From IMG/VR virus record IMGVR_UViG_2896589216_000003: a stretch of DNA of 32,297 bases; one strand, written 5' to 3'. The stretch comes from a virus. Lineage: Duplodnaviria; Heunggongvirae; Uroviricota; Caudoviricetes. The translations under genes and the position numbers were made by a program. Positions 2,404 to 6,407 of the stretch are shown here, piece after piece. Within the stretch, counting starts at the first letter, position 1; each line of letters begins with the position of its first letter. The notes beneath the pieces are model-generated. The model searched no databases. It had not been told where the DNA came from and saw only the letters and a list, made by a program, of their open reading frames with translations.

Positions 2404-2589
2404 TTGACCATGTTTGATTACCAAGTTTCCAAACATCCATATTTTGATGAAGCCTGTCGTGCATTTGCACTGCGCCACAATCTGGTGCAACTGGCAGAAC
2501 GTGCAGGCATGAATGTGCAGATTCTGCGGAACAAGCTGAACCCAGCTCAGCCTCATTTATTAACCGCACCAGAAATCTGGCTGCTTTGA
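2404..2589 (+). pseudogene. cII-like regulator, N-terminal 61 codons only; truncated by IS911 left end
   Basis: ORF stop codon TGA (2587-2589) is the first bases of the IS911 terminal repeat TGAAGTGGCACACTG; synteny with 186-type early operon. Confidence 0.55.
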
Positions 2590-2726
2590 AGTGGCACACT
2601 GAATTTGGCCACCTGAACAGAGGTGATATGCTCACCTCAGAACAACACAGGTGCTCCAATGAAAAAAAGAAATTTTAGCGCAGAGTTTAAACGCGAATCC
2701 GCTCAACTGGTTGTTGACCAGAAATA

Positions 2727-2735
2727 CACGGTGGC
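2727..2735. repeat. 9-bp target-site duplication CACGGTGGC, left copy, of IS1 copy 1
   Basis: Identical 9-mer at 3504-3512 immediately after the IS1 right end. Confidence 0.9.
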
Positions 2736-2790
2736 GGTGATGCTGCCAACTTACTGATTTAGTGTATGATGGTGTTTTTGAGGTGCTCCA

Positions 2791-3066
2791 GTGGCTTCTG
2801 TTTCTATCAGCTGTCCCTCCTGTTCAGCTACTGACGGGGTGGTGCGTAACGGCAAAAGCACTGCCGGACATCAGCGCTATCTCTGCTCTCACTGCCGTAA
2901 AACATGGCAACTGCAGTTCACTTACACCGCTTCTCAACCCGGTACGCACCAGAAAATTATTGATATGGCCATGAATGGCGTTGGATGCCGGGCAACTGCA
3001 CGCATTATGGGCGTTAGCCTCAACACGATTTTACGTCACTTAAAAAACTCAGGCCGCAGTCGGTAA
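2791..3066 (+). CDS. insA: IS1 InsA
   Basis: 91 aa, [42 protein letters not shown]... Confidence 0.95.
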
Positions 3067-3110
3067 CCTCGCGCATACAGCCGGGCAGTGACGTCATCGT
3101 CTGCGCGGAA

Positions 3111-3488
3111 ATGGACGAACAGTGGGGATACGTCGGGGCTAAATCGCGCCAGCGCTGGCTGTTTTACGCGTATGACAGGCTCCGGAAGACGGTTGTTGCG
3201 CACGTATTCGGTGAACGCACTATGGCGACGCTGGGGCGTCTTATGAGCTTGCTGTCACCCTTTGACGTGGTGATATGGATGACGGATGGCTGGCCACTGT
3301 ATGAATCCCGCCTGAAGGGAAAGCTGCACGTAATCAGCAAGCGATATACGCAGCGAATTGAGCGGCATAACCTGAATCTGAGGCAGCACCTGGCACGGCT
3401 GGGACGGAAGTCGCTGTCGTTCTCAAAATCGGTGGAGCTGCATGACAAAGTCATCGGGCATTATCTGAACATAAAACACTATCAATAA
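3111..3488 (+). CDS. insB: IS1 InsB reading frame (expressed as InsAB' by -1 frameshift)
   Basis: [22 protein letters not shown]...; follows insA in the -1 frame. Confidence 0.9.
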
Positions 3489-3503
3489 GTTGGAGTCATT
3501 ACC

Positions 3504-3512
3504 CACGGTGGC
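3504..3512. repeat. 9-bp target-site duplication CACGGTGGC, right copy, of IS1 copy 1
   Basis: Matches 2727-2735. Confidence 0.9.
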
Positions 3513-3686
3513 AGATGCCGCCAAAGCTATGGATGTTGGCCTTTCCACAATGACAAGATGGGTCAAACAACTGCGTGATGAGAGTCAGGGCAAAACACCA
3601 AAAGCCTCTCCGATAACACCAGAACAAATCGAAATACGTAAGCTGAGGAAAAAGCTACAACGCATTGAAATGGAGAATGAAATATT

Positions 3687-3693
3687 AAAAAAG
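3687..3693 (+). promoter_or_regulatory. IS911 programmed -1 ribosomal frameshift heptamer A AAA AAG (orfA to orfB)
   Basis: AAAAAAG lies in the orfA/orfB overlap; the motif is established for IS911/IS3 family. Confidence 0.6.
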
Positions 3694-3764
3694 GCTACCG
3701 CGCTCTTGATGTCAGACTCCCTGAACAGTTCTCGATAATCGGGAAACTCAGAGCGCATTATCCT

Positions 3765-4604
3765 GTGGTCACACTCTGCCAAGTGTTCGGGGTTCATCGC
3801 AGCAGCTACAGATACTGGAAAAACCGTCCTGAAAAACCAGACGGCAGACGGGCTGTATTACGCAGTCAGGTACTTGAGCTACATGGCATCAGCCATGGTT
3901 CGGCCGGAGCAAGAAGCATCGCCACAATGGCAACCCGGAGAGGCTACCAGATGGGACGCTGGCTTGCTGGCAGGCTCATGAAAGAGCTGGGGCTGGTCAG
4001 CTGTCAGCAGCCGACTCACCGGAATAAACGTGGTGGTCATGAACATGTTGCTATCCCTAACTACCTTGAAAGGCAGTTCGCCGTGACCGAGCCAAATCAG
4101 GTGTGGTGCGGTGATGTGACCTGTATCTGGACGGGTAAGCGCTGGGCGTACCTCGCCGTTGTTCTCGACCTGTTCGCAAGAAAACCAGTGGGCTGGGCCA
4201 TGTCGTTCTCGCCGGACAGCAGGCTCACCATGAAAGCGCTGGAAATGGCATGGGAAACCCGTGGTAAGCCCGGCGGGGTGATGTTCCACAGCGATCAGGG
4301 CAGTCATTATACGAGCAGGCAGTTCCGGCAGTTATTGTGGCGATACCAGATCAGACAGAGTATGAGCCGGCGCGGAAACTGCTGGGATAACAGCCCAATG
4401 GAACGCTTCTTCAGGAGTCTGAAGAACGAATGGATGCCGGTGGTGGGTTACGTAAGCTTCAGCGAGGCAGCTCACGCCATAACGGACTATATCGTTGGAT
4501 ATTACAGCGCACTAAGACCGCACGAATATAACGGTGGGTTACCCCCAAACGAATCGGAAAATCGATACTGGAAAAACTCTAACTCGGTGGCCAGTTTTTG
4601 TTGA
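3765..4604 (+). CDS. IS911 OrfB (DDE transposase catalytic part)
   Basis: 279 aa; IS3-family integrase-core features (WCGDVTCI..., [10 protein letters not shown]). Confidence 0.85.
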
Positions 4605-4612
4605 CCACTTCA

Positions 4613-4783
4613 ACCGGCGATGGACTGTGTCTGCTGACCAAACGGCTGGAGCGCGGCCGCTTCGCCTGGCCGTCAGCCCGGGATGGCAAAGTGTTCCTCA
4701 CACCGGCACAGCTGGCGATGCTCCTTGAAGGTATCGACTGGCGGCAGCCTAAAAGACTGCTTACGTCCCTGACTATGTTGTAA
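4613..4783 (+). pseudogene. IS66-family tnpB, C-terminal fragment
   Basis: Begins directly at the IS911 right end with no start codon of its own. Confidence 0.7.
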
Positions 4784-4831
4784 GCCTCTTTATCCTGGTC
4801 GACGCTGAATGAGCCTGGTAATATACCCGGT

Positions 4832-6369
4832 ATGAGCAGCTCACTTCCTGACGATATCAATGCACTGAAACGTCTCCTTGCCGAACAGGAGGCGCTGAAC
4901 CGTGCCCTGCTGGAAAAGCTGAACGAGCGTGAACGCGAAATAGACCATCTGCAGGCACAGCTGGATAAGCTGCGCCGGATGAACTTCGGCAGCCGCTCCG
5001 AAAAAGTCTCCCGTCGTATCGCACAGATGGAAGCTGACCTGAAGGCACTTCAGAAAGAAAGTGATACCCTTACCGGTCGGGTTGACGACCCGGCCGTGCA
5101 GCGCCCGCTGCGTCAAACCCGCACCCGCAAACCGTTCCCCGAATCACTCCCCGCGATGAAAAACGGCTGCTGCCGGCAGCGTCATGCTGCCCGGAATGTG
5201 GAGGCTCACTGAGCTATCCGGGTGAGGATGCCGCCGAACAGCTGGAGTTGATGCGCAGCGTCTTCCGGGTTATCCGGACTGTACGTGAAAAGCATGCCTG
5301 TACTCAGTGCGATGCCATCGTGCAGGCCCCCGCGCCTTCACGGCCCATCGAGCGGGGTATCGCAGGACCGGGGCTGCTGGCCCGCGTGCTGATCTCAAAG
5401 TATGCAGAGCACACCCCGCTGTACCGCCAGTCTGAAATGTACGGCCGCCAGGGCGTGGAGCTGAGTCGTTCACTGCTGTCGGGCTGGGTGGATGCATGCT
5501 GCCGGCTACTGTCACCGCTGGAAGAAGCGCTTCAGGACTATGTGCTGACTGACGGTAAGCTCCATGCTGATGACACGCCTGTCCCGGTGCTGTTGCCAGG
5601 CAATAAGAAAACGAAGACCGGGCGGTTATGGACCTACGTTCGTGACGACCGTAACGCCGGGTCAACGCTGGCGCCGGCGGTGTGGTTCGCTTACAGCCCG
5701 GACAGAAAAGGCATCCATCCGCAGACCCATCTTGCGGGGTTCAGTGGTGTACTGCAGGCGGATGCATACGCCGGGTTCAACGAGCTGTACCGGGATGGCC
5801 GGATAACGGAAGCCGCCTGTTGGGCTCACGCCCGCCGTAAAATCCACGATGTGCACGTTCGCACCCCGTCAGCCCTGACGGAGGAAGCGCTGAAACGGAT
5901 CGGCGAACTGTACGCCATCGAGGCAGAGATAAGGGGAATGACGGCGGAGCAGCGCCTTGCCGAACGTCAGTTGAAAACGAAACCGCTGCTGAAATCCCTG
6001 GAAAGCTGGCTGCGTGAAAAGATGAAAACCCTGTCGCGACACTCAGAACTGGCGAAAGCGTTCGCATACGCCCTGAACCAGTGGCCGGCGCTGACGTACT
6101 ATGCAGATGATGGCTGGGCTGAGGCGGACAATAATATCGCTGAAAATGCGTTGCGGATGGTCAGTCTGGGCCGCAAAAACTACCTGTTCTTCGGTTCGGA
6201 TCATGGAGGAGAGCGGGGAGCGCTGCTGTACAGCCTGATCGGGACGTGCAAACTGAACGGAGTGGAGCCAGAAAGCTACCTCCGCTATGTACTTGACGTC
6301 ATAGCCGACTGGCCGATAAACCGGGTCGGCGAACTGCTCCCCTGGCGCGTAGCACTGCCGACTGAATAA
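4832..6369 (+). pseudogene. IS66-family transposase TnpC, frameshifted at the C-run 5149-5152
   Basis: ORF 4832..5212 ends ...[16 protein letters not shown]; the other frame continues [23 protein letters not shown]... straight into ORF 5248..6369. Confidence 0.8.
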
Positions 6370-6407
6370 CACATCCCCGTCAATACGGTTCTTGCTGCAC
6401 GCTTACC

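Follow-up and report, generated by a model that had tools for sequence, protein, structure and literature searches.

The window analysed here is a stretch of 32,297 nucleotides (virus record IMGVR_UViG_2896589216_000003, Caudoviricetes) that carries a defective 186/P2-like prophage, and the region studied is the eroded early region of this prophage, where insertion sequences (ISs) now stand between the cII-like gene and the replication gene. The prophage lies between rcdA and ybjL, and its end is near 29.4 kb, past an ogr-like gene; window positions 29679-32297 are the chromosomal flank, on the side of ybjL, ybjM and grxA. Its lysogeny module is of the 186/P2 type, with an integrase, a CI repressor (1461-2036, minus strand), a 73-amino acid (aa) apl-like gene and a cII-like gene starting at 2410. 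Pfam families found across the window and its sister loci include PF07022 (CI), PF06892 (CII) and PF05840 (GPA), and the features that define 186/P2-like temperate phages are present: a divergent cI/apl-cII switch by int, a gpA-like rolling-circle replication endonuclease and late genes of the P2 type. The window is collinear with an annotated intact prophage and with phage records. This intact relative lies at the same chromosomal site, next to rcdA, in E. coli UPEC-245U (locus L001), and is the reference used in what follows. With the early region of coliphage 186 and P2-like prophages the window shares the order int-cI-(apl-like)-cII and, of the gpA-like replication gene, the 3' end; the same holds for phages vB_EcoM-813R9 and Klebsiella phage 4LV2017, which are annotated with cI, cII, FIL, Dam and a replication protein. 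Compared with these early regions, the window lacks 3,991 bp and its integrase has an in-frame stop. The features found in the eroded region and directly downstream of it are collected in Table 1.

Table 1. Coordinates of genes and insertion sequences in the eroded early region (window positions).
Feature	Position	Strand	Details
Truncated cII-like gene	2410..2589	+	59 of 169 codons; PF06892 (Phage_CP76), E=1.3e-17
IS911, left part	2587..2735	+	left inverted repeat 2587-2622; orfA start 2659
IS1 copy 1, 768 bp	2736..3503	+	insA 2791-3066; insB frame 3111-3488
IS911, right part	3504..4612	+	orfA remainder; A AAA AAG 3687-3693; orfB open reading frame 3765-4604; right repeat 4577-4612
ISEc22 (IS66 family) 3' remnant, 1,794 of 2,441 bp	4613..6406	+	right end ...GCACGCTTAC
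gpA-like replication endonuclease gene, 3' 298 codons	6407..7304	+	no start codon
IS1 copy 2	7397..8164	-	clean insertion; 9-bp duplication ATTATTATA; downstream of replication gene

The nested layout described in an earlier sequence-only reading of this DNA, an IS1 inside an IS911 that itself abuts a truncated element of the IS66 family, was recovered by comparison with annotated records. Thousands of E. coli records give BLAST matches that start at 2587, where they are annotated as 'IS3-like element IS911 family', and in thousands of E. coli records matches stop at 2587 and at 6406-6410, so that 2587 and 6406 can be taken as IS termini. The element boundaries given in the earlier reading are essentially right, the ends coinciding with IS termini in E. 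coli records and RefSeq naming the elements IS911, IS1 and ISEc22.

Concerning IS911, its left end begins TGAAGTGGCACAC... and its right end lies at 4612 (...GACCACTTCA). When IS1 and one copy of the repeat that flanks it are removed in silico, an element of 1,249 bp is obtained, with an intact orfA of 100 aa and an open orfB. All Shigella copies seen have this length, and the ISfinder reference for IS911 is 1,250 bp long. The reconstructed element has the properties of IS911, a member of the IS3 group of the IS3 family: imperfect inverted repeats of about 36 bp (TGAAGTGG...CCACTTCA) ending in TG...CA, with 24 of 36 positions common to both ends; orfA and orfB in the 0 and -1 frames with the A6G slippery site A AAA AAG; and a DDE (rve) domain in orfB, for which Pfam returned rve and rve_3. 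Copies annotated as IS911 in RefSeq are 99-100% identical to it. Two differences from known IS911 were found. The first is that orfA is broken by IS1, and because of this interruption the window copy cannot make OrfA or OrfAB. The second is that the 3-bp target duplication is missing, the flanks being CTT/ACC in the window and CTT/CGC in sister genomes; a different IS911 copy, in locus L018, has AAA on both sides. The missing duplication is explained by deletion and does not count against the identity of the element. The sequence-only reading had already concluded from it that a deletion or rearrangement took place at one end of IS911, and a deletion next to IS911 is borne out by the flanks CTT/ACC.

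The IS1 inside IS911 (copy 1) has the ends GGTGATGCTGCC... and ...GTCATTACC and resembles known IS1 in several features: a length of 768 bp, terminal inverted repeats (GGTGATGCTGCCAACTTACTGAT / ...GTCATTACC), InsA and InsB frames (PF03811, PF12759 and PF03400, with E values from 3e-21 to 3e-74), the frameshift site TTAAAAAAC between insA and insB, and a perfect 9-bp target duplication, CACGGTGGC, at 2727-2735 and 3504-3512 (probability by chance about 4e-6). It sits after codon 25 of orfA, the gene in which the sequence-only reading had placed it. Its identity to the other two copies of IS1 in the window is no more than about 91%, and it is therefore a different isoform. Among the fetched loci, IS1 copy 2 occurs only in L011 and L032, both from CP026832.1, and it is absent from L005 and L007.

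The third element is what is left of an ISEc22. It holds tnpB codons 60-115 (4613-4783) and a tnpC (4832-6369) that reads as two open reading frames (ORFs), and it matches PF05717, PF13007, PF03050 and PF13817 (TnpB, and the LZ, DDE and C-terminal IS66 domains). It shares 99.9% identity with the full-length ISEc22 that L005 has at this site and 99.1-99.9% with complete copies of 2,441 bp, which have tnpA-tnpB-tnpC, GTAAGCG ends and 8-bp duplications; copies 99% identical to it are named 'IS66-like element ISEc22 family' by RefSeq. Compared with complete copies, the window lacks the left end, tnpA and codons 1-59 of tnpB, its tnpC is frameshifted, and the element is immobile. Of the gene set that characterizes the IS66 family only the C-terminal half of tnpB and tnpC are present, the full set being found in L005 and L007; of the GTAAGCG terminal repeats the right one is in the window, and L005 and L007 have both, flanked on either side by the 8-bp duplication. 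The window holds a remnant of an IS66-family member, not an intact member. On its left, the right end of IS911 (4612) abuts codon 60 of the 115-codon tnpB (within PF05717 profile positions 54-100), so the fusion of IS911 to the middle of an IS66-family tnpB was read correctly and the member can now be named. On its right, positions 6407-6414 (CATTGACG) are the surviving copy of the 8-bp target duplication. Since CATTGACG lies on both sides of ISEc22 in L005 and L007, ISEc22 entered this site as a clean insertion, and the junction 6406/6407 is the original insertion junction. The earlier description of the ISEc22 right end as adjoining the 3' part of an early gene without a start codon is thus correct, but the junction is not a fusion produced by deletion.

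The two ORFs of tnpC (126 and 372 aa) result from one C missing in a run of C near 5148 (about 5144-5148), a 1-bp gap that, among sister loci, is unique to the window and L011. An identical 126-aa TnpC product is found at at least 10 other ISEc22 copies in related PacBio assemblies (L016-L025), which also split essential genes such as gyrA, suggesting systematic homopolymer errors, and the tnpC frameshift may be an assembly error of this kind. We also considered that the frameshift had been imported from another ISEc22 variant and rejected this origin: the E. coli copies in L002 and L003 do not have it, and the frameshift is uninformative.

Comparison with the intact prophage shows what the early region has lost. 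Window 1-2586 corresponds to L001 7952-10525 and window 6407-7396 to L001 14517-15506, at 99.2-99.9% identity, and the 3,991 bp between L001 10525 and 14517 are missing. They comprise codons 60-169 of cII, fil, a DUF5347 gene, a DUF2732 gene, a TraR/DksA-like gene, dam and the 5' part of the replication gene. The early genes between cII and the replication gene are therefore gone, as the sequence-only reading had stated; the comparison with an intact 186/P2-like prophage that it called for gives the size of the deleted segment, and no copy of the deleted genes lies within the window. At the left border, the cII-like gene aligns to the L001 CII coding sequence up to L001 10525, and the TGA stop of the truncated gene is formed by the first three bases of IS911. 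That IS911 truncates cII stands, and only the codon number changes: it is 59 when counted from the annotated ATG at 2410, and 61 is obtained only from an in-frame TTG upstream. At the right border, the replication endonuclease gene (804 codons) has lost its first 505 codons and two bases of codon 506, and what remains is 99.9% identical to L001 14517-15414, annotated 'replication endonuclease'. The prophage retains its repressor and cannot replicate.

The exact 59-aa truncated CII is present in 207 blocks of the assembly collection, and the order in which these changes occurred was reconstructed from sister loci in Shigella genomes. One of them, L011, is 100% identical to window 1-12,500; it belongs to CP026832.1, named Shigella dysenteriae 14 ATCC 49346 in PMC10132075. 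The arrangement is absent from 5,426 complete E. coli genomes, in which no record covers 80% or more of it and only separate IS copies were found; none of the prophage/IS junctions of the window, the cII/IS911 junction among them, occurs there, and neither does the IS911/dam junction described below.

In three sister loci (L007, L009 and L010) the truncated cII is followed by an IS911 without IS1, the 3' part of dam, the 5' part of the replication gene, a complete ISEc22 and the 3' part of the replication gene. IS911 here joins L001 10525 to L001 12364, so that 1,838 bp, from cII codon 59 to the middle of dam, are lost, with flanks CTT/CGC and no duplication. A further three (L005, L006 and L013) share this arrangement and have, in addition, IS1 at the same base of IS911 as in the window and with the same 9-bp duplication. 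Overall, IS1 is present in the IS911 of L005, L006, L011 and L013 and absent from that of L004, L007-L010 and L012. A single-nucleotide polymorphism (SNP), 3583A, is carried by the window and by the IS1-bearing copies only, no IS1-free copy having it, which places the window inside the IS1-bearing clade. The right part of the window IS911 is identical to the copy in L013, and one SNP separates the window from L005 across 1-4612. Compared with L005, the window lacks L005 12204-14945 (2,742 bp), that is, the rest of dam, the 5' part of the replication gene and the first 646 bp of ISEc22; apart from the substitution just mentioned, the only other differences are the IS1 at 7397-8164 and the 1-bp gap in tnpC. 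The starting point of both deletions is precisely the final base of the IS911 right end (the equivalent of 4612).

Since L005, L006 and L013 have IS1 and yet keep the 3' part of dam, the 5' part of the replication gene and a complete ISEc22, the fusion of IS911 to tnpB postdates IS1. Two claims of the sequence-only reading have to be revised on this evidence. The insertion of IS1 was not the last event, the second deletion having come later, and what had been taken for one deletion at one end of IS911 is two successive deletions at its right end, of 1,838 bp and then 2,742 bp. Every genome found with ISEc22 at this site has IS911 too, and vice versa. We are confident, short of certainty, of the structure and of the order of events as reconstructed here. 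An IS1/IS911 junction in E. coli plasmids (L002) was considered as a possible relative of the one in the window and rejected: IS1 abuts IS911 there at another position and the junctions are unrelated. As a separate observation, L004 and the IS1-bearing sisters share a 65-bp deletion between 10-bp direct repeats (L005 12947-12956 against L001 13117-13171), which frameshifts the 5' part of the replication gene into pieces of 43 and 455 aa.

The history shown by the sister genomes is thus the following. ISEc22 entered the replication endonuclease gene cleanly, with an 8-bp duplication, and IS911 came to connect cII codon 59 with the middle of dam, with the loss of 1,838 bp and no 3-bp duplication; either of the two may have preceded the other. 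IS1 then entered orfA of that IS911, giving the 9-bp duplication, and a second deletion, of 2,742 bp, extended from the same IS911 right end into ISEc22 at tnpB codon 60. As the mechanism of the two deletions we propose adjacent deletion anchored at the IS911 end, in which the IS911 transposase would join the 3' end of the right inverted repeat directly to a downstream site on the same molecule. At least for the second deletion the enzyme would have been supplied by other IS911 copies, because this orfA was already broken by IS1. What defines adjacent deletions is seen here, namely that the loss starts exactly at an IS end, that the IS is kept and that there is no target duplication, and dependence on transposase, without need of RecA or of a second IS copy, would follow from the proposed route. 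The direct route also fits the nested pattern anchored at one end. It has a parallel in the deletions beside IS150, another member of the IS3 family, which grew stepwise without target duplication in the Lenski long-term lines (PMC11708052): there too the IS is retained, the deletions start at one IS end, and no target duplication is seen. The present case differs from IS150 in that the history is deduced from natural sister strains and not from a time series, and in that the IS911 copy itself is disabled, so that the enzyme must act in trans. We favour this direct transposase route over one through homologous recombination with about even confidence.

Several observations weigh against it. 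A transient second IS911 followed by homologous recombination yields the same product, and these IS copies do recombine with other copies in sister genomes. A simple IS911 insertion with a 3-bp duplication, in cII or in dam, was found in no genome, and for this reason either flank of IS911 may be the original one. Furthermore, the absence of the 3,991 bp is established for the window, and the segment may still lie elsewhere in the CP026832 genome.

The alternative that survives best is accordingly a two-step route, in which a second IS911 in direct orientation inserts at each endpoint (in dam, and later in tnpB) and RecA-dependent recombination between the two copies deletes what lies between them, leaving one IS911 with flanks from different insertions. 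That target duplications can be lost through recombination between IS copies is well recognised (PMC11708052), and in the fetched Shigella loci duplications are indeed absent at four of five distinct IS911 contexts and at seven of 13 ISEc22 contexts. The same IS911 and ISEc22 copies are moreover the breakpoints of large rearrangements in CP026828 (L012 and L033) and CP026834 (L008 and L029), and IS1 would have been kept through the second deletion if the crossover fell in the 1.1 kb to its right. However, a second IS911 in dam or in tnpB was seen in no genome, and neither the 5,426 E. coli genomes nor 72,556 plasmids (PLSDB) contain the reciprocal junction, in which the 5' part of tnpB would adjoin the left end of IS911. 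The window IS911 is identical to a sister copy and has no sign of being a hybrid, with the proviso that recombination between identical copies would leave none. This route still requires that the transposase choose the same site in tnpB and explains the recurrence described in the next paragraph no better. We regard it as a real possibility, and a somewhat doubtful one. Two short sequence matches were also examined as microhomology at the junctions and discarded: the putative microhomology TCA at 4610-4612 is not shared, because native tnpB has TCT there, and the TACCG that cII and tnpB have in common does not fit, mechanistically, with where IS911 lies.

The junction between IS911 and tnpB is found outside this prophage. 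The 200 bp across 4612/4613 (junction GACCACTTCAACCGGCGATGG) match without gaps in 20 E. coli chromosomes, nine plasmids and one metagenome contig; of the nine plasmids, the eight listed are from Klebsiella pneumoniae. In each of them the tnpB of an IS66-family element is joined, at that very base, to an IS911-like element. They represent a composite whose IS911-like part, interrupted by an IS110 insertion, has about 90% identity to IS911, and whose IS66 part is about 92% identical to ISEc22. Copies of the composite (L014 6782-8893, L015 3478-7895 and L037) stand in different outer contexts, in E. coli chromosomes and in a Klebsiella plasmid; in both settings its limits coincide exactly with the left end of the IS3-type element and the right end of the IS66 element, without duplications, and the two copies have the IS110 insertion in common. 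The match from the metagenome scan belongs to the same E. coli/Klebsiella composite, and the exact junction, searched as two patterns, gave no match in the GTDB species-representative genomes.

The elements that met at the Shigella junction are 99.9-100% identical to those of undeleted sisters, so that this junction arose in situ and independently of the one in the composite. It is improbable that both fell on one base by chance, and the recurrence suggests a preferred target site. Three bases past the junction, tnpB reads GGCGATGGACTGTGTCTGCTGACCAAACGGCTGGAG, which agrees with the two IS911 repeats at 12 of the 24 positions that these have in common; when positions downstream of IS911 in L005 were ranked by likeness to an IS911 end, 15 of 7,936 scored better and 35 tied with it. 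The cryptic site would thus consist of ACC followed by GGCGATGG...TGACCA...GGAG, a sequence that weakly resembles a left end of IS911 and stands at the natural spacing of 3 bp. This spacing is that of the circle junction between the right and left ends of IS911. On these grounds we propose, tentatively, that the IS66-family tnpB has a cryptic preferred target for an IS911-type right end and that IS-end-targeted transfer produced the same junction at least twice independently. The two events, put forward with equal reserve, would be the one in this Shigella prophage and the one that gave the IS3/IS66 composite of E. coli chromosomes and Klebsiella plasmids. Among ISs, it is for IS911 that targeting of insertions to sites beside IS ends has been documented (Loot 2002, as cited in PMC9333248). 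It should be noted that two results tell against this proposal, and against the direct transposase route as well: the score of the pseudo-end is modest (p about 0.006) and was computed after the junction had been seen, and nothing like an IS911 end is present where the first deletion stops.

The existence of the composite, with an identical junction and in different outer contexts, also raises the question of whether the junction was copied into the prophage, by double recombination or gene conversion, from an IS911-ΔISEc22 composite elsewhere in the Shigella genome, kin to that of E. coli and Klebsiella. This appears improbable, given that identity between the composite and the elements of the window is no more than about 90% for the IS3 part and 92% for the IS66 part, that the elements of the window are 99.9-100% identical to the local undeleted arrangement, and that the junction is found at none of 10 other ISEc22 loci fetched from Shigella genomes. 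Less probable still is the earlier history in which ISEc22 was followed by IS911 with a single adjacent deletion reaching tnpB and IS1 came last. Nesting alone makes the innermost element seem the latest, and the perfect 9-bp duplication indicates that IS1 has been undisturbed since its insertion; yet L005, L006 and L013 share the IS1 base and SNP 3583A and keep the 2,742 bp lost in the window, and such a history would require an independent IS1 insertion at an identical base and in an identical orientation. Finally, an artefact of PacBio assembly, to which the gap in the C run of tnpC and the 126-aa product shared with assemblies that split gyrA might point, can practically be discarded for the junction, since 4612/4613 joins unrelated sequences with no shared repeat, so that repeat collapse cannot produce it, and the rest of the 12.5 kb agrees with sister loci base for base.

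The process seen here is a known kind of IS-driven prophage decay in Shigella, brought about by three known elements in an already public genome. Its value is that of a clean and datable example of Shigella ISs dismantling a prophage step by step, a decay that strips replication and lysis-lysogeny genes and leaves the repressor and a defence-like gene pair intact. It also illustrates that the order of nesting is not the order of events, which became apparent only through comparison with sister genomes. The sole feature that merits a note of its own is the recurrent junction between an IS911-type element and tnpB. If it is due to the known tendency of IS911 to insert beside end-like sequences, it would be a natural example of that laboratory observation, and, if the proposal is true, it would call for caution in using shared IS junctions as markers of common descent.

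Some further observations were made in the same prophage. The defence-like pair lies between the DinI-like and portal genes and consists of a 549-aa ATPase (8960-10609, AAA_21/AAA_15) and a 293-aa protein (10593-11474), the latter an HNH endonuclease according to the annotation of the E. coli reference and without a Pfam match in the window. PADLOC assigned the pair best to the candidate defence pair PDC-M01A/B and then to Septu PtuA, and both genes are intact amid the decaying prophage. The integrase gene (1-1053, minus strand) is interrupted by an in-frame TAG at 430-432 that divides the product into pieces of 103 and 207 aa; the TAG is common to all Shigella sister loci and absent from the E. 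coli reference. In CP026828 and CP026834 the prophage is split between distant chromosomal positions at the IS911 and ISEc22 copies, in what looks like an inversion or translocation through recombination with other copies of these ISs.

A third IS1 lies at 20261-21028 (flanks at about 20240-21523), and 5,967 bp adjoining it are missing relative to the intact prophage. The loss takes in the end of a virion-morphogenesis gene, a DUF5677 gene, the baseplate genes V, W, J and I, the tail fibre gene H and part of an invertible tail-fibre segment. Because no 9-bp duplication is found at its flanks, this is another IS-adjacent deletion in the same prophage. The invertible tail-fibre segment is itself flipped, positions 21029-21523 being inverted relative to the reference.

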